Positions 5,366 through 47,713 of a DNA stretch of 64,000 nt are shown piece by piece (within the stretch, counting starts at the first letter, position 1; each line of letters starts with the position of its first letter). A program made the position numbers and the translations under genes. This DNA comes from a virus (lineage: Duplodnaviria; Heunggongvirae; Uroviricota; Caudoviricetes): the IMG/VR virus record IMGVR_UViG_3300032018_000003, one strand, 5' to 3'. The notes below the pieces were generated by a model. It had not been told where the DNA came from. It saw only the letters and a list, made by a program, of their open reading frames with translations, and ran no database searches.

Positions 5366-5578
5366 TCAAAAAAATAGTTCATATTCATTAGTTATTATTC
5401 TAATAAAATAGTGTTGTTTTTTTAATATTTTAATAAAATCCTCTAAGTTATATTCATCATTATCTTTTCTATAATCATCTAAATCTATACTAAATTGTTT
5501 AATACATCCGTCTTTAATTTCTATCATTGGATATTGATACTTCTCGTTATCATATAATTTAATTATACTTGTTTTCAT
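5366..5578 (-). CDS. hypothetical protein (70 aa)
   Basis: ORF from track. Confidence 0.3.
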   Translation of the reverse strand: MKTSIIKLYDNEKYQYPMIEIKDGCIKQFSIDLDDYRKDNDEYNLEDFIKILKKQHYFIRIITNEYELFF

Positions 5579-5910
5579 GGTTTCACCTCGTTATATTAGT
5601 ATTATGTAGTGTTGTAAATTCATTATTTGTTTTTTCGTCTATTTCTTCAAAAAATAAAATATCTTGTCCTGCGTTAATAGTTGCTTCAAATCTTGCCTCT
5701 TCTTCATTGTTAGCTTCTATTTCTCCAGTAATTTTAAATTTCATACTTTCACCCTACCAACATACTTTTTCTAAATCGTTTATTATAATTCCATTCCTTT
5801 GGTGAATTTTTTCTTTTTTCGTTTCGTTTACATCTTAAATGTGCATCACCATGCGAATTAATTTGTAATGGTAATAAACAAATTCTACATTTTGTTGTCA
5901 TTTTATATCG

Positions 5911-12752: not shown

Positions 12753-13448
12753 TTAAAAATCATACATATAATGTCTTTGTGCTTCACGTTCTTCTTGTTC
12801 AATATCTTTATCGGTTTTAGCTTGATCTTCTTTATTCATTGCCGCATAAAGTTTATCGTACTTAGTCCAATCCTCTTCATCTTTTGGTTGTTGTTTCAGT
12901 TTATCTCTAAATCCTAACCAACCGAGAATTCCCTGTTGTCCATAACTACAACTTCCTGTTCCATCATTTTGTCCCCAACCGCTATATCCGCTCCAAACTG
13001 GTTTCGGTCTTATATCAGTAAAGTTCGTAAATTTCTTTCCCGGAACATTTTTAAAAGTAGTTATCTCTTCAACTTTTTGTAATCCGTTCCCTGCTAACAT
13101 ATACTCAACCACACGCGCAATGTCACGTCTAGTTCCATATAAATAACATTCTACAGTTTCATCTTTTAAATTTTCTACTGAACCAAACAATCCATACTTT
13201 TTAGATTGTGTTTCAATAGTGTCTCTAAAAGATACTCCTTGAACCTGTCCTTTAAATATAATATGAAACGTTATTTTTTCATTCACATCATATGTTCTAT
13301 CTACATATGTTACTTGTTCTTTAGTTGTTACTGTCGGTTTATCTTTAATCACTACCACATTTTTATCAACGTTCTTATTATTTTCTTTAATAAATTTGTC
13401 ATAATATCCCTTCTTTTTCCATTTGTTTTTATTACTCATTTTAATCAA
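12753..13448 (-). CDS. acylphosphatase-like domain protein with Gly/Trp-rich C-terminal region (231 aa)
   Basis: FKGQVQGVSFR and GLFGSVENLKDETVECYLYG resemble the two acylphosphatase signatures. Confidence 0.45.
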   Translation of the reverse strand: MIKMSNKNKWKKKGYYDKFIKENNKNVDKNVVVIKDKPTVTTKEQVTYVDRTYDVNEKITFHIIFKGQVQGVSFRDTIETQSKKYGLFGSVENLKDETVECYLYGTRRDIARVVEYMLAGNGLQKVEEITTFKNVPGKKFTNFTDIRPKPVWSGYSGWGQNDGTGSCSYGQQGILGWLGFRDKLKQQPKDEEDWTKYDKLYAAMNKEDQAKTDKDIEQEEREAQRHYMYDF

Positions 13449-26059: not shown

Positions 26060-27385
26060 TCAATATTCAAATATGTTTTTCTTAATCTGTGGTTTAATAA
26101 AATAACTTAACTCACTCCACACTCCACTCATATCAATATCCGATATTGTAAAGTTACGGTCTTTAAATTCATCTAATGTACATAGTTTTATACTATTACC
26201 GACGCCCACACCTCTAGTGTTGGGGATAAGAAAGTGTATTCCTGGACCATATTTTTTAGTTATCTGCGCCTGAATTCCACCTAAAGAATTCGAATAATGT
26301 TCTATTTTCTTTACACTTTTTCTCATACACATAAGAGTTGTGTCTTTTTCTAATAGTTCTAATATAATGTTTTTTAAATAAGTTTTACTAAATTTAACTA
26401 TTCCCTTTTCTACTATTTGAGGTACTAAGTAATCCCAAAAAAGTTTTCTAGATAAAGGAGATGTTGATTTTTTTCTTATACCGAGATTTTTTATGACTAA
26501 AGCGTCTTTGGGGTCTTTAAAAATTCCTTTTTTTACATATATATAATTTTTTTGAAGAAGTCCAAACTCATGTTTATTTTTCTGGTCATCTTCGTCTAAA
26601 TCAAATTCGATTTTATTTTTTTTGTTGTCTCCTTTAAAGAAAAACAAATGTTTAATTTCACACTCTAATTCAAAATCAAATGTTGTTTGAGGAAACGGAA
26701 CTGTACTTTTAATATAGTCTATAATTTGTTGTTTGACTTTTAACAATCTTTCAGTGTCCATATAATAATCTAGTATGTATAACGAATCTGTATCAGTATA
26801 TGCAACATCATAACCATTCTCTTTAAACACTTGTCTTGCGTATTTTACCCATTGTTCCCCTAATGAAGTACAATCCTGTGCTGCAGTCATATCATATAAT
26901 AATATAAATGCAGGGTTGTCAGAAACTCCGAAGCTCGTATTTAAGCATATCTTAAACGTGTATTCAAGCGGGTCTACTTTTTTACTTAGTTCTAAATATT
27001 CCTTTACTAACTCTTCTGTTAATACTATTTCTTTTAATTCTAAATCTTTAACGTCTTTTAAATTAATTGTATATATAACTTTACCAATATATTTATCTGC
27101 CTTTTTCATACTAACTACTTTCTTTTCTTCTACTAATACAAATTTTCGTTTATAATAATTTCTTTGATAAAACCATTTACGTTGTAGTTTAGCAACTATA
27201 CCCATTTCATCAGTATAATAAACGCCGCTAACTTTCCATACCCCTCCACCATTCCATGTGGGTCTATTATTAAAATCAAACTCTTTCTTTCTATTTAATA
27301 ATGCGGCTTGAATATATACGTGTGGATATAGAGAAGTATAATCTAATAATATTATATTATATTTTGATTTGTCTATAGTTTCCAT
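26060..27385 (-). CDS. polB: family B DNA polymerase, polymerase-domain fragment (441 aa)
   Basis: Motif A LLDYTSLYPH and motif C YTDTDS are present. It begins immediately after the point where the exonuclease-fragment ORF ends. Confidence 0.85.
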   Translation of the reverse strand: METIDKSKYNIILLDYTSLYPHVYIQAALLNRKKEFDFNNRPTWNGGGVWKVSGVYYTDEMGIVAKLQRKWFYQRNYYKRKFVLVEEKKVVSMKKADKYIGKVIYTINLKDVKDLELKEIVLTEELVKEYLELSKKVDPLEYTFKICLNTSFGVSDNPAFILLYDMTAAQDCTSLGEQWVKYARQVFKENGYDVAYTDTDSLYILDYYMDTERLLKVKQQIIDYIKSTVPFPQTTFDFELECEIKHLFFFKGDNKKNKIEFDLDEDDQKNKHEFGLLQKNYIYVKKGIFKDPKDALVIKNLGIRKKSTSPLSRKLFWDYLVPQIVEKGIVKFSKTYLKNIILELLEKDTTLMCMRKSVKKIEHYSNSLGGIQAQITKKYGPGIHFLIPNTRGVGVGNSIKLCTLDEFKDRNFTISDIDMSGVWSELSYFIKPQIKKNIFEY

Positions 27386-27389
27386 TTTA

Positions 27390-27752
27390 TTACCAACATC
27401 TCATTATAGGATAATACATTATTTTATTAGTAATCAACATAGAGTTTTCATACCACGTCATATTTCTTTTTCCTATATATTCTATTTTTATAAAAGAACA
27501 ATCTAATTTAACATTAAATTTATAAGTATCATTAAAAACACAATAACCATCATTCTCATAATATACTGTTGTGTTTTCGTTCATGTCGTGCATAAAATTA
27601 CAAAGAGTGTCGTTTTTATAAACTAACACGCTGTTTGCTCCAACAAACATTCCATATGATGTACCCATATTATAAATTATTAAAAACAATATAATCATTA
27701 ACAACCAAAACAATATAGTCTTTATTTTATTTATTTTAATCTGTTGTAACAT
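27390..27752 (-). CDS. small type-II membrane Cys protein inserted between polB fragments (120 aa)
   Basis: MLQQIKINK start plus a transmembrane segment. It is a paralog of 27736..28029. Confidence 0.45.
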   Translation of the reverse strand: MLQQIKINKIKTILFWLLMIILFLIIYNMGTSYGMFVGANSVLVYKNDTLCNFMHDMNENTTVYYENDGYCVFNDTYKFNVKLDCSFIKIEYIGKRNMTWYENSMLITNKIMYYPIMRCW

Positions 27753-28029
27753 TATTAACCTCTAAATATTCTTTTGCTTTATTAAAATTATATTTATTAG
27801 AATAACTATATTCACCTTCTATAGATATATTTACACACGTAAAACTATCATAAAGAATAACATCGTTTGTTTTATAATTATAATAACCTTTATAATTACA
27901 AAAATCTTCTGCGGTTGTTAAATCTTCATATATTGACATCCCCATTAAAATAGGTCCACCAACTATACACATTGAAATTATTAATGTAAAATAATCTATT
28001 TCTCCTTTTTTATTTTTAATCTGTTGCAT
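27736..28029 (-). CDS. small type-II membrane Cys protein inserted between polB fragments (97 aa)
   Basis: MQQIKNKKGE start plus a transmembrane segment. It is a paralog of 27390..27752. Confidence 0.45.
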   Translation of the reverse strand: MQQIKNKKGEIDYFTLIISMCIVGGPILMGMSIYEDLTTAEDFCNYKGYYNYKTNDVILYDSFTCVNISIEGEYSYSNKYNFNKAKEYLEVNNVTTD

Positions 28030-28783
28030 GGAACTCTTCCCCGGTAGGATAACTTACATACCCACCACTAATTTTCTCTTCACTCTCATCTTCACCACTA
28101 TCTCCAAATTTATCAGGATACTTTGGTGTCCATCCTAATGAATAACAAATAACTTTATATACAAAACTTGCTGCACTTGCAGTCAAATAAGTTTTTCTAT
28201 TAATATCATCTTCAGGTACGAAATTTTTAAACACACTAAAATAATCTTCAATAAACTCATACAATTTTTTAGTTACTTCTATATCTCTATTAAGATACTC
28301 GCGCATTGTTTTAAGTTCTTCGTTGGTCCATTGTTTTTTATTAAACAAATTCTTATCAACATGTATCTTAGAACTTTCTTCATCTACTAAATGTAATGTC
28401 TTAGTAATATAATCCAAACTAAATTCCATTAGGAGGTCTTTTAACATACCATCTTTAACTTTCATAATTATTGCTCTGTCAACAATTACGTTTCTTAAAT
28501 CAACATATACTTTATTATAAAATTTAATCCCGTGTCGTTTAAGAACATTATTATCATAACCAGGATTATCTTTCTTACCTTCAATATTGAACCCCACGAT
28601 TACTCTGTGCGCATTAATAACCTTTTGTACCTCTGACAAATCTGTTAATATATATGGTTTCCCTGTCTTATAACTATAACAACCAAACAATCGGAACTCA
28701 TCGTTCTCTGCATCGGGCATTCCCTTAGTCGGTGTATATGTTTCAATGTCATATACTAAAACGTCTTTGTCAATGTCTACCAT
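28016..28783 (-). CDS. polB: family B DNA polymerase, 3'-5' exonuclease-domain fragment (255 aa)
   Basis: Exo I YDIETY, Exo II GFNIE..YDNNVL and Exo III YLNRD are present. It ends with the pre-motif-A sequence GGYVSYPTGE. Confidence 0.8.
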   Translation of the reverse strand: MVDIDKDVLVYDIETYTPTKGMPDAENDEFRLFGCYSYKTGKPYILTDLSEVQKVINAHRVIVGFNIEGKKDNPGYDNNVLKRHGIKFYNKVYVDLRNVIVDRAIIMKVKDGMLKDLLMEFSLDYITKTLHLVDEESSKIHVDKNLFNKKQWTNEELKTMREYLNRDIEVTKKLYEFIEDYFSVFKNFVPEDDINRKTYLTASAASFVYKVICYSLGWTPKYPDKFGDSGEDESEEKISGGYVSYPTGEEFHATD

Positions 28784-29517: not shown

Positions 29518-29932
29518 TATTAGTCATACTTTTCATTGTTTTATTAAATACTGTATTAATAATAACCCCTGCGGTAACTGTTGCTGCAATAATCGCAGTC
29601 ATCTCGCTAATTGTTTTTAATAATAATAATCGTCTATTGTTTTTAATAATAATAATCGTTTAAACAACTGTTCCTCGTCTTTTGTAAAAATGTTACTCTT
29701 TAACATTGAATTCAATTCTACCAAAATTAATTCATCTAATAAAAATAAATATTTGTTTTCTTCTTCCGTTTTCATATTAATCCTCTCTCCTCTTTAATTT
29801 TTGTTTGCATACTTTCAGCAAACCTTTTTCTAAATTCTAAATATTCGTCTTTAAGTTTAATTTCGTTTATTATTACTTCTGCAATTTCTCCAGTAACTAC
29901 ACACTGAAATAAATTATATTTCATATCATCGT

Positions 29933-31138
29933 TCATTTCGATTCCCCCTTAAACATACTCTTAAATATTTTTGCTGCTACACTAACTGTCCAACCATTTC
30001 CTGCTAGATGATATAAATGACTTTTTGCTATACCTTCTATAATAATCTCATCTCTTAAAAAACCCTGTAACCTAAAACATTCTTTTGGTGTTAAACGTCT
30101 TATTCTTTGGTTTGTTATTAATACCTCTTTCGGTTCTCCTGCTTGTAAACATCTATGAACATTACTATCTTGTGGAATGTATGTTGTTAAAGGACGATCT
30201 TCTTTCCCATGTTTTAAATGATATATATCTATTTGTTGAGGTTCGTTCTTTTCTAACTCTAATTTTTTTGCTACATCCAACGCTATATTAAAATCGCGTG
30301 TCACTGTATTAAGTAATATTTTATTATCGGCTGCAACGGTACATGTTAATGTTGGACTTATACCATTAACACTATATATTCTTTCTCTATCAAATTCCGC
30401 ATCCATATTTAATTGTACTATTTCGTCAACAAAACACGGTACATCACCACCGACTTTTAATGTTCTACACGGGTTATTTATATCTATAGGTTGTCTTTCT
30501 TTAAAATTACTTTTATTTATACCATTGATTGCTCGTTCAGATAAAAAATAACTTTCATCAACTTCTTTTTCTAATACGTCTTTAAGAAATAATTTAAGTG
30601 GTTCTTTGTTTGGAAATTGAAATTCCATAAAGTCCCATGTGCCTAATTTACATACAAACCAAACACGTTCCCTATTTTGTGGTACACCGTAATCTTTACT
30701 ATTTAATACTTTATGACAAACATCGTAACCTATTTCTCTTAAACAATGTATCATCTTTTCAAACGTTCTACCATCGTCAATACTTAATAGTCCCTTTACG
30801 TTTTCTAATAACATATATTTAGGTTTCTTTACTTTTGCTATTCTTAACACGTCCCAAAATAAAGTTCCTCTAGGATCAAGTTCACCTAAACGTTTTCCAC
30901 TTATAGAAAAACTCTGACAACAAAACCCTGCTGTAAGTAAATTAAAGTCTGGTACTTCTTCCGGTACTATTTTACTTATGTCACCATAGTTTTTTATTTT
31001 ACCATGATTTAATTCATGAATCTTTATTGCATGTTTATCTATCTCTGATATACCTACACATTTAAATGGAAGTCCTAATTGTTTTAATGCAAACAAATCT
31101 GCACCATAACCGGAAAATGTACTAAAGACTTCTATCAT
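29933..31138 (-). CDS. DNA (cytosine-5)-methyltransferase (401 aa)
   Basis: Motif I FSGYGA, a PCQ-type motif GFCCQSFS and ENVKGL are present. Confidence 0.85.
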   Translation of the reverse strand: MIEVFSTFSGYGADLFALKQLGLPFKCVGISEIDKHAIKIHELNHGKIKNYGDISKIVPEEVPDFNLLTAGFCCQSFSISGKRLGELDPRGTLFWDVLRIAKVKKPKYMLLENVKGLLSIDDGRTFEKMIHCLREIGYDVCHKVLNSKDYGVPQNRERVWFVCKLGTWDFMEFQFPNKEPLKLFLKDVLEKEVDESYFLSERAINGINKSNFKERQPIDINNPCRTLKVGGDVPCFVDEIVQLNMDAEFDRERIYSVNGISPTLTCTVAADNKILLNTVTRDFNIALDVAKKLELEKNEPQQIDIYHLKHGKEDRPLTTYIPQDSNVHRCLQAGEPKEVLITNQRIRRLTPKECFRLQGFLRDEIIIEGIAKSHLYHLAGNGWTVSVAAKIFKSMFKGESK

Positions 31139-31275
31139 TATTTAACTTCCTCAATTGCATCCACGGGACATTGTGTTTTAAATTTTTTTAATCTTTTTTG
31201 AGATGTCTCATTATCATCTATTCCACATACATTACAACCAATACATTTATCTTTATTTATTTTAAATTTTACCAT
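31138..31275 (-). CDS. mini ferredoxin-like 4Fe-4S protein (45 aa, not in track)
   Basis: Manual translation MVKFKINKDKCIGCNVCGIDDNETSQKRLKKFKTQCPVDAIEEVK. It has CxxCxxC...CP. Its stop overlaps the MTase start codon. Confidence 0.45.
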   Translation of the reverse strand: MVKFKINKDKCIGCNVCGIDDNETSQKRLKKFKTQCPVDAIEEVK

Positions 31276-31490
31276 ACATACACCTACCACATTTTATATT
31301 TATATAGTTGTTGTTTCTAACTCCTATTCAAAGTCTTTGTTACTACAACCAGTATGATATTCAAGTTGTTTGTTCCATTGTACTGTAGCGGTTTGTTTTT
31401 TAATACCAAGTTTTTCACATTCTTTAATAAACAATTCTTTGGTGTTTACTTTATTATATATCGCTTCATAATTTGTTTTTACCATTCGAT

Positions 31491-31706
31491 TCACTTCTCC
31501 CTTTTATGATTCGTTAAATCCTTTCTACTAAGTTCTTCAAAATATTGTCCTAAACTACTGATGTTTTTATCTAAACAATGAATTTTAATTTTTTTCCACA
31601 TATCCTTAGATAATTTTATTGTTGTAAAAACATATACTTCTTTTTTTCTAAATGAAACATACGACTGAACTGTTTTTTCTTTTTTAATATTATCTCCTTT
31701 CGCCAT
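31491..31706 (-). CDS. putative ribbon-helix-helix (CopG/Arc-like) regulator (71 aa)
   Basis: The N-terminus is basic and beta-strand-like. The whole protein is helical and small. The call is weak. Confidence 0.3.
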   Translation of the reverse strand: MAKGDNIKKEKTVQSYVSFRKKEVYVFTTIKLSKDMWKKIKIHCLDKNISSLGQYFEELSRKDLTNHKREK

Positions 31707-32119
31707 TGTTTAAACCCTTTTAAATTTCGGACACTCATTACTTTTATATTCCGCGCAACTGTTTTTACAATATCGTCCTTGTATACATACTTTATCTCCC
31801 ACATATCCTGCTTTGTGATCCATCTTACCTAATGGACATACATAACTATTATTCTTGTTCGGTTTCGTCATTTATTTCGTCCTCCTTGTTTAATGCTATT
31901 AAAGCTCTTATTAATAGTACTAATACTATTATTAAAAATATAATAAATAATATTAATATAAAAATTAATGTTACGTTGTCCATGTTAGTTTACTTCTCCC
32001 TACTCACTCATTAATGAAAAAAACAAAAAAATGCAAAACATCATATAATGATTAGTAATCAAACACAATACTGCCGCTATAAAAAAATATGGTATGTTTT
32101 TCATGTTCCTATTCTCTAT

Positions 32120-32974
32120 TTATTTAAAATCTCCGTTTAATCCGTGGGTTTCTTTTATTTTTTGTATTTCCTTTTCACTAAAAAAATCATTTTTAAGTTT
32201 AACTATTTTTTTAGTGTCTGTGTTTTTATCAACCATATCTAATATATTTTTTATTACTATATTTTTAGATTTGATTTCTCCTACACCACAACAATTATTA
32301 TTCGCATATATGTTTTTGATTATAAATAAATTATTATCATACAATTTAATTTTTTCTATAAGTTCTTTTATTTTTTTATTTAAATTATTTTTTGTATTAT
32401 TGTATCGTTCTTTATTATTAATATTTTCTAATTCTTTTTCTAATTTTATTAATTCCTCTTTATATTGTTTTGATAATTCACTCAAATCAAAATATGTTTT
32501 CTTAGTTACCTTTTGTAAAACTTTAGATTTATACTTCCATATAAATTCATATTCGTTATTATTCATCTTGAATAATATTAAATTTTTAGCATAAGTTTTA
32601 CCATTAAATATCCAAAGCATTTTATCATAAAACTTTTCACGATTTTTAATATCTTCGGAAGAAATAGGACTATTTTGAAATTCTACAACATATTTTTCAT
32701 TAATCATAACATCTGCAATATGTTTTGTTAATTGTTTTTGTACAATAATTTCTCTATTATTTAATGGAAACTTGTTTTTCCATTCTACGTGCCACTGAGT
32801 TTCTCCCTCTGACCAAGTATCACAATCAGTTCCTTTTTTATGCGCCCAATGCCACACATTAATATCTCCACATTTAGATATTACTTCCTCACCACATAAT
32901 TGACACATTCCTTTTTTTCCTGGTTCTGCAACCGTTTTTTCATTATTACTGTTTATTACATACAACATTTTCAA
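32120..32974 (-). CDS. CoiA-like (competence protein CoiA family) nuclease-domain protein (284 aa)
   Basis: CQLCGEEVISKCGDINVWHWAHKKGTDCD...WH has the CoiA-like Cys cluster plus HWAH. Confidence 0.5.
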   Translation of the reverse strand: MKMLYVINSNNEKTVAEPGKKGMCQLCGEEVISKCGDINVWHWAHKKGTDCDTWSEGETQWHVEWKNKFPLNNREIIVQKQLTKHIADVMINEKYVVEFQNSPISSEDIKNREKFYDKMLWIFNGKTYAKNLILFKMNNNEYEFIWKYKSKVLQKVTKKTYFDLSELSKQYKEELIKLEKELENINNKERYNNTKNNLNKKIKELIEKIKLYDNNLFIIKNIYANNNCCGVGEIKSKNIVIKNILDMVDKNTDTKKIVKLKNDFFSEKEIQKIKETHGLNGDFK

Positions 32975-35977: not shown

Positions 35978-36536
35978 TCTAAAAAAACTTCTTTATAATA
36001 AAAATTTAGATATAATCTAATTACATAAGTTTTTTTAGAAAATATATATTACATAAGTTTTTTTTCTGTTTTTATAACTATTTATTATAATGTTAAGATT
36101 TTTTAAAAATAGTACTTTTTTGTAGTAACACAATAAATTAACATTTTTTTTGACATTATATATGTTTTCAAAAATATATATTGCGGTATATAATTCCCTA
36201 GGTTTTAGTGTTTTTTTGGTGTTTTTTACCCTTTTTTCTAAAAAAACTTATGTAACGAAAACAGATTTATGTAATGAGGGTATTGTAAAATGCTAGTATA
36301 ACCCATATATCATAGAAAAAAAAATATTACATACGTTACATACGACATTTCGAAAATTGGTATACAAAATATTTCTAAAAAAACTTTATAACCTATTTTT
36401 GTGTATTACCTAAATAGTAGTAAAAACATTAAGCGCGTTGTTAAAAATAATTTTTTTTATATACGAAATGGTATATACGAAAATTATAATATAAAATTCA
36501 TACTGAAGTTGAAAACGCTTATGTAACGTATGTAAT
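35978..36536. promoter_or_regulatory. strand-switch intergenic region with repeated TTACATAAG/CTTATGTAA and TCTAAAAAAACTT motifs
   Basis: TTACATAAG at 36021 and 36049. Its reverse complement at 36248, 36267 (variant) and 36518. TCTAAAAAAACTT at 35978, 36238 and 36374. Confidence 0.45.
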
Positions 36537-36595
36537 TTTCGAATAGTATATTAGAAAAGGTAATTATATAAATACCATTTACTATATTTAACATA

Positions 36596-36736
36596 ATGTT
36601 TAAAGAAATACATTTAGCAGCAATTGATGCTGCGCGTATCTTTGGTGAGGACTATCATCTAAGCTGGATATTTTTCTATCCACTTTGGTTTGTCGCGATC
36701 CTTGTCACGTTTAAAAAAGATAAAGGAGATGTTTAA
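36596..36736 (+). CDS. small membrane protein (46 aa, not in track)
   Basis: Manual translation MFKEIHLAAIDAARIFGEDYHLSWIFFYPLWFVAILVTFKKDKGDV. Confidence 0.3.
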   Translation: MFKEIHLAAIDAARIFGEDYHLSWIFFYPLWFVAILVTFKKDKGDV

Positions 36737-36855
36737 TGAAAGGAACTTGTGATTATTGTGGTGAATATGATTATTTAACATTTAAAGGATTATGTAAAGG
36801 ATGTCATATTAAAGAATATGGTAAAAAAGATTTTGAAGAAAACGAACGGATGTAA
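36736..36855 (+). CDS. small zinc-ribbon protein (39 aa, not in track)
   Basis: MKGTCDYCGEYDYLTFKGLCKGCH with an AGGAG SD upstream. Confidence 0.35.
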   Translation: MKGTCDYCGEYDYLTFKGLCKGCHIKEYGKKDFEENERM

Positions 36856-36896
36856 TATAACATAACACTATTCAATATTAAATAGGGTAACTAATT

Positions 36897-37196
36897 ATGG
36901 TAACTTTGATACAAAAAGAATATTATAAATGTGATTATTGTTCTTATACCGATGAAGATGAAGATGATGTAAAAGAACATATGATAGAACATCAAGAATC
37001 TCCTATCAAAAAAGAAGAAGATGTATATGTTTGTGATGTATGTAAAGAAGAATTTAAAAGAAGTACTTACGCAGTAACGTGTGAAGATAAACATAAAAAC
37101 AATAATGATAAAAGATATCAAGCGTTTCTTGAAGATCAACAAAGAACTAAATTGTTGTGTGAAGGTAATAAACCTAACCAAAAAAAACTTTTCTAG
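36897..37196 (+). CDS. C2H2-like zinc-finger acidic protein (99 aa)
   Basis: Carries CDYCSYTDEDEDDVKEHMIEH and CDVCKEEFKRS. Confidence 0.4.
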   Translation: MVTLIQKEYYKCDYCSYTDEDEDDVKEHMIEHQESPIKKEEDVYVCDVCKEEFKRSTYAVTCEDKHKNNNDKRYQAFLEDQQRTKLLCEGNKPNQKKLF

Positions 37197-43045: not shown

Positions 43046-43387
43046 ATGGAAAAAATAATTTGGAACAATAAAATAATAAAAGCAGATTTTAAAAAAGGAG
43101 ATAGAATTAAAGTTATTAATACTTTATTAATGTGTGGGCAATATTATAATTATGCAAGAATTTTTATGAAATATAATATTATGTTAGAAGTTAAAAAAAT
43201 TCATAAATGTACACATTGTAATAAAAAAACAAAACCGTTTTTCACGTATGGATGTAGTATAATAAAAAAAGATAATGATAAATTAATAAAAACATTGGAA
43301 AAAGTAAAAAAACCAGACGATGTTTTAATATTTGATTATGCAACATTATTATATTATTATAGATGTAATGATATAAAAAAGGTATGA
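43046..43387 (+). CDS. hypothetical protein with CTHCNKK motif (113 aa)
   Basis: ORF from track. Confidence 0.3.
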   Translation: MEKIIWNNKIIKADFKKGDRIKVINTLLMCGQYYNYARIFMKYNIMLEVKKIHKCTHCNKKTKPFFTYGCSIIKKDNDKLIKTLEKVKKPDDVLIFDYATLLYYYRCNDIKKV

Positions 43388-45561
43388 AAATGATAAGAAG
43401 TTCATTTTCCCAAACTAATATGTTTAGTCACTACCCTCGTCAATGGTATTTTAAGTATGTATTAAAGATTAAGGAAGTATCAGATTTTTCTTACGCGAAT
43501 GGTGGTACAGCCGTACACAAAACCGTTGAACAATTATTATTAAAAAACATAACTGAAATTGAAGCATTAAAAGAATTCTTTAATAACCAATGGGATAGTT
43601 TTAATTTAAGTAGTTCTATAATAAAACATATGAAAGACAAATATTGGTTAATGGTACTTAATGCAAGAGAACGAAATATTGAATGTACCGATATAGAAAG
43701 TGAAATAAATTTTCCTGATGTTCGTATGTTTTTAGATATATTAAATAAAAACACTTGGGAAATTAGAGATTTAAAGACGAGTAAACGTGATGATAAACAC
43801 GATAAAGAATATACCGATCAAACATTACTATACGCGTGGGGAATATTGCGACAATATAATGTACTCCCGAGAAAACTAACTGTCGATTATTTACAATATT
43901 CCGGTAGTAAAGGTATATTAGAAATTGTACCAACACAACAAGACATTGATAGAATTTCTAAATGGTATAACGATTGTGGATCAGAAATGGAAGCGTTATC
44001 TAATTTAAAGATTTGTCCAGCTAAATGTAAAGAATGTAACCCGTGGTGTAGTTTTACAAAAGAATGTGCTGCAGAAGAGAATGAATTTACTGTTAAATTA
44101 AATATATGGAACAGTTTAATATTTATTAATTGCGAGTTTAATGATATAATAAATAAACAATTACATAAGAAATTTAGTTATGTTCAAACCAAAGACGCAT
44201 ATATGAATAAGAAATGGAACAAACAAAACCCCACTATAGATTTTTATAATGAAACTAAACATAGTTTACCATTAGGGTTTAAGACACAACTAATAAAAAC
44301 GTTTACTGATTATTGTGAATGGAAGAAATGTAAACTAAATTTAATTATTAATGATACACGCCAGTTTAATGAAGCTAAAATAATAATGCCAGAAAAATTC
44401 TTGAACGGAAATGAGTTAAGATACTATCAAAAGGATGCAGTTAAAGTAGTATTAGATAATAAAATTGTTTCAATACAGTCCGCAACCGGAAGTGGTAAAA
44501 CAGAGATGTCAATAGATGTTATTAGACAATTAGGATATAAAACATTGTTTATTGTCGATAGAAAAGAATTAATGAAACAAACAATAGAACGAATAGAAAA
44601 ATGTTTAGGTGTAGAGGTTGGTAAGTTAGGTGAAGGGGAACGAGATTTAAAACATATTACTGTTGGTATGATACAAACAATTAATAGTAACATAAACAAT
44701 AACGATCAAGAAATTATAGATTATTTGAAAACAATTAGGTTTACTATATTTGATGAAGCTCATAAATGCGCAGCAGATTCTTTTATTACATTAAATAAGT
44801 GTCTTAATAATTCTGAATATAAACTTCTTATGTCGGGAACTTTAAGACGTAATGATGGAGAAGATATGAAATTATATTCTATTGGTGGTGAAATTAAATA
44901 TACCAAACAAGCAAAAGAATTAATAAACGAAGATATCCTTATGAATCCTAAAGTTTATTTTATTAAAGATTATATGACACGCGAACAAGAACACGAAATA
45001 AGACTATCGTGTAGTACAGGATTAATTAACGCGGAAGACCAATATCCTATTTTTTATGATAAGTTTATCGTTACAAATAGTTTAAGAAACGAATTAATAA
45101 AACAAGTAGTAGATGTAGTTAGTAAAAACAACAAGAAAGTTTTAATATTAGTTAAGTTGATAGAACATGGAAAAATATTAGAACAGTTAATTCCTAATAG
45201 TAAATATTTGTATGGCGAAACACCAAAAAAGGAACGGGAAGAAATATTTAACGATTTTTCTCATGGTAATCTTAATGTAATGATTTCTATGGTAACGATG
45301 ATGAGTGAAGGATTAGATTGGCCGTCACTTGAACTTTTTTTGATGGCGAGTGGTATAAAAACAGATAATAAAATAATACAAGGCATTGGCAGAATATTAC
45401 GTAAATGTAAAAATAAAGAACAACCAAAATATATTGATTTTATGGATTATGGTGGTATGATTAGGAATGCCAGCGTGTGTAGACGTCGTGCATTAAGACG
45501 TGAAGGATATTATATTAACGAAGTTACATTAGACGAGTTCATAGAAACACAAACTATATAA
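43384..45561 (+). CDS. Cas4-like RecB-family nuclease fused to SF2 DEAH helicase (725 aa)
   Basis: N-terminal nuclease motifs and the Cys cluster CPAKCKECNPWCSFTKEC. C-terminal helicase motif I SATGSGKT, motif II FDEAH and motif VI-like QGIGRILR. Confidence 0.6.
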   Translation: MKMIRSSFSQTNMFSHYPRQWYFKYVLKIKEVSDFSYANGGTAVHKTVEQLLLKNITEIEALKEFFNNQWDSFNLSSSIIKHMKDKYWLMVLNARERNIECTDIESEINFPDVRMFLDILNKNTWEIRDLKTSKRDDKHDKEYTDQTLLYAWGILRQYNVLPRKLTVDYLQYSGSKGILEIVPTQQDIDRISKWYNDCGSEMEALSNLKICPAKCKECNPWCSFTKECAAEENEFTVKLNIWNSLIFINCEFNDIINKQLHKKFSYVQTKDAYMNKKWNKQNPTIDFYNETKHSLPLGFKTQLIKTFTDYCEWKKCKLNLIINDTRQFNEAKIIMPEKFLNGNELRYYQKDAVKVVLDNKIVSIQSATGSGKTEMSIDVIRQLGYKTLFIVDRKELMKQTIERIEKCLGVEVGKLGEGERDLKHITVGMIQTINSNINNNDQEIIDYLKTIRFTIFDEAHKCAADSFITLNKCLNNSEYKLLMSGTLRRNDGEDMKLYSIGGEIKYTKQAKELINEDILMNPKVYFIKDYMTREQEHEIRLSCSTGLINAEDQYPIFYDKFIVTNSLRNELIKQVVDVVSKNNKKVLILVKLIEHGKILEQLIPNSKYLYGETPKKEREEIFNDFSHGNLNVMISMVTMMSEGLDWPSLELFLMASGIKTDNKIIQGIGRILRKCKNKEQPKYIDFMDYGGMIRNASVCRRRALRREGYYINEVTLDEFIETQTI

Positions 45562-45775: not shown

Positions 45776-46480
45776 ATGAAGATTGACAAAACAGAGATAG
45801 TAAACTTTTTTAAGAAAATTAGAATGGATAAAGACGAAAAGATTGAAGAAGCAAAATTTAACTTTGATACTAATGGACTTAAAGTATTAGCAACGTCTAA
45901 TACTAAATCAACACAAGTGAGTGCATTATTAAAACCTGCTGCATTTAAAGAATATGAAAAAATTGGTGTAGTAGCAATAAACGATCTTACTAATGTTCAA
46001 GGAGTATTTGATAGATTTAAAGGAGTTATTACAATTAAAAAAAGTGGTAATTGTATGATAGTGAATGGGGACAACAAAAAAGTTGATATTGAATTGGTAA
46101 GCGAACAGTTTCTTGTAAATGAAAAAGAACCCCAAGGATTAGTTTTTGAGAACGAAATTATTATTGATAGTACAACATTAAAAGAAATTGTTGCAGACAT
46201 TGAACTTAATAAAGAAGCAGAATTAATTGTTACTACAGGAGATAAGGTAGTTAAATTTAGTAATACCGGAAAATATAAATTTGAGACTACACTTGAAGCA
46301 CCATTATGTAAAGTAGGAACTGTAGTAAAATTCGGTCAAGCATTTATTGATGCAACAAAAAATCTTAATGGTATGTTGAAACTACATGTAGGAACAAATT
46401 ATCCATGTAAGATTGTTGAAGAGTCTGATATAAGTACAATAAGTATAATTATTGCACCGCGTATAGCCGACTCAGAGTGA
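45776..46480 (+). CDS. candidate sliding clamp (PCNA-like), weak (234 aa)
   Basis: The size and alternating hydrophobic pattern fit PCNA, and it lies directly upstream of the RFC-like gene. No strict motif was seen. Confidence 0.35.
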   Translation: MKIDKTEIVNFFKKIRMDKDEKIEEAKFNFDTNGLKVLATSNTKSTQVSALLKPAAFKEYEKIGVVAINDLTNVQGVFDRFKGVITIKKSGNCMIVNGDNKKVDIELVSEQFLVNEKEPQGLVFENEIIIDSTTLKEIVADIELNKEAELIVTTGDKVVKFSNTGKYKFETTLEAPLCKVGTVVKFGQAFIDATKNLNGMLKLHVGTNYPCKIVEESDISTISIIIAPRIADSE

Positions 46481-46518
46481 ATTTTTTATTTTTTATAATA
46501 TGATAAGGAGATACAAAA

Positions 46519-46794
46519 ATGTCAACAAGTAATATATTATTTTGGTGCGCAATAGGTATTGCAGTATTAGGCTTAATTTATGTTGGTACGATTGAAACGA
46601 TAGGTACAAAAAATATAGATTGTTATGATGAACATAACCAAAAAATACTTGACCACGTGTGTGAAGAGAAACAAGCAATAAATATATTTGGAATGACTGG
46701 TTCGGAAAAAGAACTTTGTTCGTATTCAGTAATTGATATATTACTTATATTTATATTGTTTGCTGGTAGTATATTAACTATACGAATGTATTAA
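46519..46794 (+). CDS. small membrane protein (91 aa)
   Basis: AAGGAGA SD upstream and two transmembrane segments. Confidence 0.35.
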   Translation: MSTSNILFWCAIGIAVLGLIYVGTIETIGTKNIDCYDEHNQKILDHVCEEKQAINIFGMTGSEKELCSYSVIDILLIFILFAGSILTIRMY

Positions 46795-46816
46795 AAAAAT
46801 ATAATGAGGAACACAA

Positions 46817-47713
46817 ATGACATTCAACCCTAAAGATATTGTTTGGACCGAGAAATATAGACCCAAATTAGTAAACGAAATTGTTGGAGATTTTAAAGAT
46901 AAGATAAAAGAGTATCTTAAAAATTCTGATAACATGCCACATTTTTTATTTTACTCACGTACTCCTGGAACCGGGAAAACAACAATTGTAAAAGCAATCA
47001 TTAATGAACTTGGTTGTGATAGTATAACAATAAACAGTTCCGATGATAGAGGTATAGAAGCAATAAGAGAAAAGGTTAAAGAGTTTGCTAAATCTAAAAG
47101 TAGTAATGGTAATAGGCGTTGTGTATTCTTAGACGAAATTGATGGTGCGACTCGTCCTGCACAAGATGCTCTTCGTAATATAATGGAGACATACGCAAGT
47201 AACGCATTTTTTTGCCTCACATGTAATAATATAAATAAGGTTTCGGATGCGATACAATCACGTTGTGTATGTATAAATTTCGCATACCCAAATAGAGACG
47301 AGATAAAAAAATATCTTGAAATGATATGTGAAAAAGAAAATTTAAATTATACTGATGAAGGACTTGATGAAATATTAAAATATAATTATCCTAGTATAAG
47401 AAATTGTGTTATATGTTTACAAGACTTGAAAACCGAAAGTAAAGATATAACAAAAGAAAATATTAAACCTATTAATAGTATGTTTGAAGAAATGTGGCAG
47501 AAAATAAAAAACAAAGAGTGGAAGGATATTAAAATTATTATAATGGAGAGTACACTTGACGCGAGAGAACTTAATACTTATTTTTGGGAGAAAGCATTAG
47601 AAGAAGAAAATATTAAAATTATTCAAACATGTTGTAGAAATGAAAAGGATATTAGTACTGGTGCAGATGCTAATATTATAGTAGTAACAAGTTTAATTGA
47701 GATGGTAAAATGA
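46817..47713 (+). CDS. rfc: replication factor C small-subunit-like clamp loader (298 aa)
   Basis: WTEKYRP box, P-loop RTPGTGKTT, Walker B FLDEIDG and SRC motif QSRCV. Confidence 0.8.
   Translation: MTFNPKDIVWTEKYRPKLVNEIVGDFKDKIKEYLKNSDNMPHFLFYSRTPGTGKTTIVKAIINELGCDSITINSSDDRGIEAIREKVKEFAKSKSSNGNRRCVFLDEIDGATRPAQDALRNIMETYASNAFFCLTCNNINKVSDAIQSRCVCINFAYPNRDEIKKYLEMICEKENLNYTDEGLDEILKYNYPSIRNCVICLQDLKTESKDITKENIKPINSMFEEMWQKIKNKEWKDIKIIIMESTLDARELNTYFWEKALEEENIKIIQTCCRNEKDISTGADANIIVVTSLIEMVK

Follow-up and report, generated by a model that had tools for sequence, protein, structure and literature searches.

Independent roles are favoured for a miniature ferredoxin gene and an orphan C5-cytosine methyltransferase gene adjoining in a phage early operon

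The window analysed here is a 64,000-nucleotide (nt) stretch from a virus of the Caudoviricetes (IMG/VR virus record IMGVR_UViG_3300032018_000003), which between positions 29,933 and 31,706 carries the gene of a C5-cytosine DNA methyltransferase (hereafter the methylase) and, directly upstream of it, an open reading frame (ORF) of 45 amino acids (aa), the mini ORF, whose product bears a ferredoxin-like cysteine signature and is termed mini-ferredoxin. These two genes and the small ORFs that flank them are all encoded on the minus strand. The methylase and the mini-ferredoxin are read here as independent accessory genes of a phage early operon, that is, an anti-restriction methylase and a miniaturised [4Fe-4S] ferredoxin that overlap through normal gene packing, and a probability of about 0.68 is assigned to this reading.

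31138..31275, minus strand: mini-ferredoxin gene, 45 aa, one predicted [4Fe-4S] site at C11/C14/C17/C36 (the last in a Cys-Pro); supported by the Fer4 match, homologues, substitution rates, profile comparison and an AlphaFold2 model
29933..31138, minus strand: C5-cytosine DNA methyltransferase, 401 aa; supported by Pfam PF00145, TIGR00675, PHROG 116 and the M.HhaI alignment

The TAA stop of the mini ORF and the ATG of the methylase have one base in common (TAATG). A previous interpretation made from the letters of the window (the sequence-only reading) had noted this overlap, which is present but amounts to one base, not four, and belongs to a minus-strand locus; it had also suggested, from the translational coupling, a possible functional link, which was not supported, as 37 of the 119 same-strand junctions in the window (31%) overlap likewise, 21 of them by ATGA and five by one base. 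The one-base overlap is ordinary gene packing in this genome and no sign of shared function, and it may provide some translational coupling from the mini ORF to the methylase. The surroundings of methylase relatives were examined at 81 loci (L001 plus 80 IMG/VR loci, with flanks of up to 4 kb, about 0.7 Mb, read in six frames). An ORF with the pattern CxxCxxC...CP was found at 0/81 of them, and the gene of the nearest methylase relative (58% identity) follows directly after a primase gene with no mini-ferredoxin upstream. As for the relatives of the mini-ferredoxin, P0122 (42 aa, 63% identity, E 3.5e-7) was located on 14 contigs amid nucleotide-metabolism genes, in a gene series of phage-like character that is conserved (RlaP, YAcAr, dNMP kinase, metallophosphatase and NT5C), where it is flanked by uncharacterised 60-aa and 156-aa proteins, and tblastn detected no relative of the window methylase on these contigs, which are up to 7.7 kb long. 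The combination of methylase and mini ORF was therefore met neither at the 81 loci nor on the P0122 contigs, and no mini-ferredoxin relative lies next to a relative of the window methylase. The suggestion that the mini ORF encodes a redox-sensing regulator of methylation, or an anti-restriction component, is unsupported speculation, for which little speaks beyond two coincidences discussed below, a unique motif of the methylase and one mini-ferredoxin relative adjoining an unrelated gene with a methyltransferase annotation. Moreover, C5 methylation requires no electron donor, and its biochemistry thus gives no grounds for pairing it with a ferredoxin.

The mini-ferredoxin and its family

Translated from the ATG at 31275, which has a Shine-Dalgarno-like AGGTG 5 nt on its 5' side, the mini ORF product is MVKFKINKDKCIGCNVCGIDDNETSQKRLKKFKTQCPVDAIEEVK; an alternative GTG start at 31290 would give 50 aa. 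The product reads CIGCNVC...CP, a CxxCxxC motif with a distal Cys-Pro, and this pattern has one occurrence in the window. The Pfam model Fer4 (PF00037) scored 24.2 bits (cut-off 21.1), from a match confined to residues 5-17. A word-indexed search with the 45-aa ORF returned itself alone, while an exhaustive HMMER search of 1.84 billion representatives recovered P0122 and P0124 (39 aa, E 2e-4); a further match, P0123 (2303 aa, repetitive), was rejected as a low-complexity artefact. A profile built from three sequences added P0125 (42 aa) and then reached ordinary cellular ferredoxins of 57-68 aa, and P0141 (39 aa) is an additional member, so that the family comprises five distinct sequences in four 90%-identity clusters among billions of proteins. 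Profile-pattern scans of IMG/VR confirmed no more mini-ferredoxins; of two DNA patterns, the first gave 0 matches, and the second gave four, each with in-frame stops and hence spurious. Metagenome and genome scans yielded further copies of P0122 and ordinary ferredoxins of 59-72 aa from candidate phyla radiation (CPR) bacteria, Bacilli and Clostridia, and nothing else.

Eight positions are invariant in the alignment of the family (A4), namely C11, C14, C17, C36, P37, V38, A40 and I41, and, set against the monocluster ferredoxins P0129 and P0127 (63-68 aa), the small proteins show a single internal gap of about 20 residues. The ratios of nonsynonymous to synonymous substitution rates (dN/dS) were 0.14 for the window versus L002 (one of the P0122-carrying contigs), 0.23 for the window versus L008 (a contig with the P0124 gene), and 0.11 for L008 versus the contig L200 (dS 0.82), indicating purifying selection on the mini-ferredoxin. 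With the alignment as input, AlphaFold2 produced a model with a mean confidence score (pLDDT) of 84, in which a strand, the cluster loop, a helix, the CP loop and a second strand follow one another. Fold searches with the 45-aa model gave weak matches, mostly to ferredoxins, with non-significant scores, as expected for 45 residues. Judged by these sequence criteria, the mini ORF is a real gene, and the earlier recognition of a single 4Fe-4S ferredoxin-type motif in it was borne out by the Fer4 score above cut-off, the homologues and the purifying selection.

Concerning its ancestry, the A4 profile matched solved monocluster ferredoxins end to end (positions 1-41), with the targets carrying extra segments, and the E-values were 4.6e-7 for Thermotoga maritima, 1.3e-6 for Pyrococcus furiosus, 5.9e-6 for Desulfovibrio africanus and 3.2e-5 for Bacillus thermoproteolyticus. 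These monocluster [4Fe-4S] ferredoxins of 60-81 aa (T. maritima, 1rof/1vjw; P. furiosus, 2z8q; D. africanus FdI, 1dax; B. thermoproteolyticus, 1iqz), which are of the Fer4_13/Fer4_15 type, present the same order of elements as the mini-ferredoxin, that is, an N-terminal beta-strand, CxxCxxC, a helix, CP(V)xAI and a C-terminal strand, whereas the mini-ferredoxins are shorter (39-45 aa), phage-borne, and lack the hairpin and loop of about 20 residues after the third Cys. The closest cellular homologue, P0127, occurs in the chromosome of a spore-former and in a Bacilli metagenome-assembled genome of 23% GC, contexts that would fit a gene taken up from a low-GC Firmicute host and then miniaturised. 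The mini-ferredoxin is read as a derivative of the 60-68-aa monocluster ferredoxins of low-GC Firmicutes/Bacilli, with about 20 central residues lost. It would most likely bind one [4Fe-4S] cluster via C11/C14/C17/C36, and would serve a host or phage partner other than the methylase, either by carrying single electrons at low potential or by cluster-dependent binding.

Two other groups of small or phage-borne ferredoxins were compared. The semidoxins and the protodoxin PD1, half-ferredoxins that occur in nature or were designed, measure about 30 aa and have a contiguous CxxCxxCxxxCP; they are rare, tied to anaerobes, and can dimerise to form two clusters (PMC12648291). The mini-ferredoxin resembles them as a very short natural ferredoxin-like peptide, but departs from the contiguous motif, as Asp21 occupies the +4 position after its third Cys, the CP follows 19 residues on, and the protein has 45 aa; its ancestry differs as well, being that of a monocluster ferredoxin with an internal deletion. 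The Prochlorococcus phage P-SSM2 ferredoxin is a cyanophage [2Fe-2S] plant-type protein of about 95 aa with known host partners (10.1101/2020.02.07.937771). The mini-ferredoxin is likewise a phage-encoded auxiliary ferredoxin that might engage redox enzymes of the host, but of an unrelated, [4Fe-4S]-type fold.

The mini-ferredoxins are a new, very short and rare variant of a known fold, undescribed as far as the literature was searched: 39-45 aa long, phage-borne and under purifying selection, they resemble a monocluster ferredoxin cut down to its cluster-binding core. If a cluster is bound, they would rank with the smallest ferredoxins in nature whose CxxCxxC...CP site is split, which bears on work on minimal and ancestral ferredoxins, and phages of anaerobes would carry [4Fe-4S]-type electron carriers, as compared with the well-studied [2Fe-2S] proteins of cyanophages.

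One further gene is held in common with the P0122 phage. A 73-aa protein encoded at 5369..5590 (minus strand) is 54% identical to that of L002 6852..7070, located on P0122-carrying contigs, which hints at a distant relationship or at gene exchange between the window phage and the P0122 phage.

The methylase, its motif IV and its orphan state

The methylase matched Pfam DNA_methylase PF00145 (6.2e-69, 233 bits, cut-off 22), TIGR00675 dcm (3e-78, 264 bits, cut-off 100.65) and PHROG 116 (1.4e-86), and M.HhaI aligned with its residues 6-201 (1.5e-46), while its variable region did not align with solved enzymes. The motifs in the translation are FSGYGA (I), GFCCQ (IV), ENVKGL (VI), QNRER (VIII), RRLTPKECFRLQGF (IX) and GNGW (X). 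In an alignment with M.HhaI and 19 relatives, the ORF was full length and all motifs except IV were intact. A GAGGA Shine-Dalgarno site at 31148..31152 (minus strand), 9 nt 5' of the methylase ATG, falls within the tail codons of the mini ORF (EEVK). On these matches the protein is classed as a genuine C5-methyltransferase, in agreement with the initial assignment, which had named the FSGYGA, CCQ and ENVKGL motifs.

Motif IV is where the protein departs from its relatives. Codons 73-74 (30917..30922, minus strand) read TGT TGT, giving C73-C74: Cys takes the place of Pro in the otherwise near-invariant Pro-Cys dipeptide, and the catalytic Cys74 is kept. Among 120 protein relatives, motif IV was PCQ in 113 and PCV in one, with six unmatched by the motif pattern, and CCQ was seen in the window protein only; the 79 IMG/VR relatives comprised 70 with PCQ and nine with PCT (CCQ 0/79). 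CCQ was thus missing from all of the roughly 198 relatives. TGT is two substitutions away from any Pro codon, which makes a read error unlikely. The methylase is probably, but not certainly, active despite CCQ, its uncertainty arising from the Pro-to-Cys change before the catalytic Cys. It would use S-adenosylmethionine and the Cys74 thiolate to methylate cytosine C5 in a short motif on phage DNA, and by homology and the role of phage orphan methylases, this methylation would protect the DNA against host restriction enzymes. A natural Pro-to-Cys change next to the catalytic Cys also offers a ready test of how essential the 'invariant' PC dipeptide is.

The absence of a cognate endonuclease, claimed in the sequence-only reading, held up. 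The immediate neighbours of the methylase are ORFs of 45-71 aa, and no PADLOC model of a restriction endonuclease matched any neighbour or the only nuclease-like gene nearby, which lies about 1 kb and five small ORFs upstream:

32120..32974, minus strand: CoiA-like protein with a competence-protein zinc finger and a PD-(D/E)XK-type nuclease domain (Pfam CoiA_N 2e-9, CoiA_nuc 5e-7)

Neither this gene nor the flanking small ORFs recurred at any of the 81 loci with methylase relatives (0/81). The methylase is therefore considered an orphan, since its neighbours include no restriction-enzyme match and do not recur; the CoiA-like protein, considered as a cognate endonuclease, was rejected on the same two grounds. 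An orphan state is normal for phage methylases. Bacillus phages SPbeta, phi3T and SPR provide examples. Others were acquired by lactococcal 936-type phages, and phage orphan methylases that shield the DNA from restriction are documented (PMC4190342). Like phage orphan C5-methyltransferases in general, the window enzyme is a stand-alone PF00145 protein in an early/replication region, with no endonuclease and a presumed role in self-protection; it differs from them by CCQ in place of PCQ and by a nearest relative at only 58% identity.

Weighing of alternative explanations

Several observations weigh against the proposed reading. The third-to-fourth Cys spacing of the mini-ferredoxin (18 residues) is shorter than in the solved monocluster ferredoxins compared here, and the single-cluster Pfam models Fer4_13 (19.4 vs. 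24.5) and Fer4_15 (17.7 vs. 22.4), which describe a domain of about 58-66 positions, scored below their cut-offs on the mini ORF. No ferredoxin-dependent enzyme (radical-SAM CxxxCxxC, NrdG-like and similar) was detected in the 64-kb window; this client search matched nothing but the nuclease-helicase at 43384..45561, through its Cas4/AddB-like cluster of cysteines. On the side of the methylase, the palindromes GATC, CATG and GGCC were under-represented in the whole window (observed/expected 0.41, 0.49 and 0.51, respectively), while GCGC, CCGG and CGCG were not avoided; these statistics are only suggestive, and the proposed search for an avoided target palindrome accordingly gave under-represented candidates but no target assignable to the methylase from the counts. 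Further, no other methylase examined shows CCQ and no other has an upstream mini-ferredoxin; that two rarities meet at one locus is regarded as coincidence. Finally, L008, an 845-bp contig, has an ORF with a match to PHROG 757 (E 2.3e-24; annotation 'DNA methyltransferase'), and the end of this ORF is overlapped by the P0124 gene.

The last two observations, together with the base shared between the mini ORF and the methylase and the location of the methylase Shine-Dalgarno site inside the mini ORF, could be explained if the two proteins cooperated, the mini-ferredoxin gating or protecting the thiol of the CCQ site, or making methylation responsive to host redox or iron status, with translational coupling keeping their stoichiometry. 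We judge this quite improbable. C5 methylation proceeds by an established mechanism that involves no redox partner, overlapping junctions are common throughout the window genome, the P0122 lineage has no methylase on its contigs of up to 7.7 kb, and the mini-ferredoxin is missing not only from the 81 loci of methylase relatives but also from those of PHROG 757 relatives (0/82). The PHROG 757-type ORF of L008 is itself unrelated to the window methylase, and its full-length relatives have FPPCT and ENP motifs and no Pfam match. In addition, L008 360..652 and L200 178..470 hold a two-gene cassette of a 49-aa ORF and the mini-ferredoxin with 82% DNA identity, the 49-aa part being in frame with the methyltransferase-like ORF in L008. 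The DNA homology is limited to these two genes and the upstream contexts differ, as L200, a near relative of L008, has a zinc-ribbon ORF in place of the methylase-like gene; since the homology ends at the two genes, the mini-ferredoxin travels as a small cassette into different places. With the discovery case discounted, the chance of one more such adjacency in two or three independent contexts is, by our own rough estimate, about 0.1. The wider proposal that the 39-45-aa mini-ferredoxins are dedicated partners of phage C5-type methyltransferases, with a cluster peptide gating the CCQ site by host redox or iron state, is about as doubtful; if true, such gating would be a new kind of control over an anti-restriction enzyme.

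The three remaining alternatives concern the genes singly or the methylase and its surroundings. It is possible but unlikely that the methylase is catalytically impaired or repurposed through the loss of the Pro, for example to DNA binding without methylation or to another substrate. GFCCQ stands in one of about 199 sequences, against PCQ, PCT or PCV in the others, and results from two nucleotide substitutions; Schizosaccharomyces pombe Pmt1, which has PSCQ, was reported without DNA methylation activity, and other DNA methylases were reported to lose their activity when a Ser was inserted ahead of the catalytic Cys (PMC3526270). However, Pmt1 is all the same an active methyltransferase on tRNA (PMC3526270), and the methylase ORF is full length with its remaining catalytic motifs all intact. 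Unlikely, too, is that the mini ORF encodes a small Cys-rich protein of ferredoxin descent that holds no [4Fe-4S] cluster in vivo, acting instead as a zinc-binding protein or as an apo peptide that perturbs a host protein. The loss of about 20 residues of the ferredoxin core, the sub-threshold scores of the single-cluster models, the many small Cys-rich, zinc-ribbon-like ORFs in the window and the lack of a client enzyme there would agree with such a protein, but conservation falls exactly on the signature of a ferredoxin cluster site (CxxCxxCG and CPVxAI), down to the Pro, Val, Ala and Ile that in ferredoxins pack against the cluster, and peptides of about 30 aa with this kind of motif assemble redox-active [4Fe-4S] clusters (PMC12648291). 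Highly improbable is a restriction-modification pair of the methylase and the CoiA-like nuclease, with the small helix-turn-helix- or ribbon-helix-helix (RHH)-like ORFs as controllers. The nuclease domain is encoded on the same strand and in the same gene train as the methylase, and a weakly RHH-like ORF sits between the two, but five small ORFs separate them, the RHH assignment of that 71-aa ORF is not significant, the CoiA-like protein has no PADLOC restriction-enzyme match, neither it nor the small ORFs are near any of the 81 methylase relatives, and a lytic-type replication module is an unusual location for a restriction enzyme. Two independent accessory genes, an anti-restriction methylase and a miniaturised ferredoxin, remain the preferred reading.

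Regarding PHROG 757 itself, its proteins (L114 2228..2848, which is CS5676_0067 of Clostridium phage phiCs5676-1, and 80 IMG/VR relatives) carry the motifs FPPCT, ENP, FGHPxxKxTxLW and GIAxAMAEQW and belong to no Pfam family, and their 'DNA methyltransferase' activity appears to be a matter of annotation only.

Genomic setting and neighbouring genes

The window is part of a phage-like genome of about 97 kb and 28% GC, with GC varying from 25% to 33% across the window. No close relative of the phage was found among GenBank phages (blastn, tblastn) or in IMG/VR (methylase and primase scans), and the lineage is a novel one, of which the locus represents a phage-like replication region. Up to about 36.5 kb the minus strand carries the genes; past that point they lie on the plus strand, and the sign of GC-skew switches with them. 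At 36000..36900 or thereabouts, the gene trains diverge by strand and the signs of both GC-skew and AT-skew change, as might be seen at an origin or at a divergent promoter region. The minus-strand early/replication train comprises, in order, a Prim-Pol/D5 primase-helicase, the CoiA-like nuclease, several tiny ORFs, the mini-ferredoxin, the C5-methylase, tiny ORFs and a split family-B polymerase, and the plus-strand part encodes a PD-(D/E)XK nuclease-helicase, a second helicase, a PCNA/Rad1-like protein and an RFC-like clamp loader. A scan for promoters and terminators around the mini ORF gave nothing above shuffled expectation, and no tRNA genes were found in the window.

The small ORFs next to the two genes are as follows.

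29617..29775, minus strand: 52-aa ORF, next in the train after the 54-aa ORF, with an ATGA overlap; no family match
29772..29936, minus strand: 54-aa ORF directly 3' of the methylase, with an ATGA overlap and in the same gene train; no family match
31324..31494, minus strand: small ORF, 56 aa if begun at a GTG and 53 aa if begun at the ATG of 31485; no family match
31491..31706, minus strand: 71-aa ORF with a 4-nt overlap with the adjoining ORF; weakly RHH-like

Two of them had been pointed out before. The 53-aa ORF further upstream is present, with the 53 aa counted from ATG, and has no relatives in any fetched locus. The putative RHH protein is present as the 71-aa ORF, but its RHH match is weak, as neither the PHROG 582 Arc-like repressor (E 0.05) nor PDB 2kel, the SIRV1 protein 56B (E 0.15), was matched significantly, and Pfam and NCBIfam gave no matches to it. 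Beyond it, a 53-aa ORF at 31710..31871 (minus strand) has five cysteines, a strong Shine-Dalgarno site and no family match, and many small CxxC...CxxC or zinc-ribbon-like Cys-rich ORFs are scattered over the minus-strand region.

Several replication genes were noted in the window. The family-B DNA polymerase at 26060..28783 (minus strand) looks split: 28016..28783 (255 aa) is of exonuclease type, 26060..27385 (441 aa) is the polymerase part, with a weak Pfam DNA_pol_B match and a YTDTDS motif, and two small hydrophobic ORFs, 27736..28029 and 27390..27752, lie between the two. The plus-strand protein of 43384..45561 is a PD-(D/E)XK nuclease fused to a superfamily 2 helicase; its C-x3-C-x2-C-x3-C cluster recalls the Cas4/AddB iron-sulfur nucleases, and it gave weak PADLOC matches to PbeA and Cas4. 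At 45776..47713 (plus strand), a PCNA/Rad1-like protein (weak match) is followed by an RFC-like AAA+ clamp loader. Taken with the polymerase and the primase-helicase, these two proteins suggest that the element encodes its own replisome. Outside this set, a 231-aa protein with an acylphosphatase domain (2e-14), an unusual phage gene, is encoded at 12753..13448 (minus strand).

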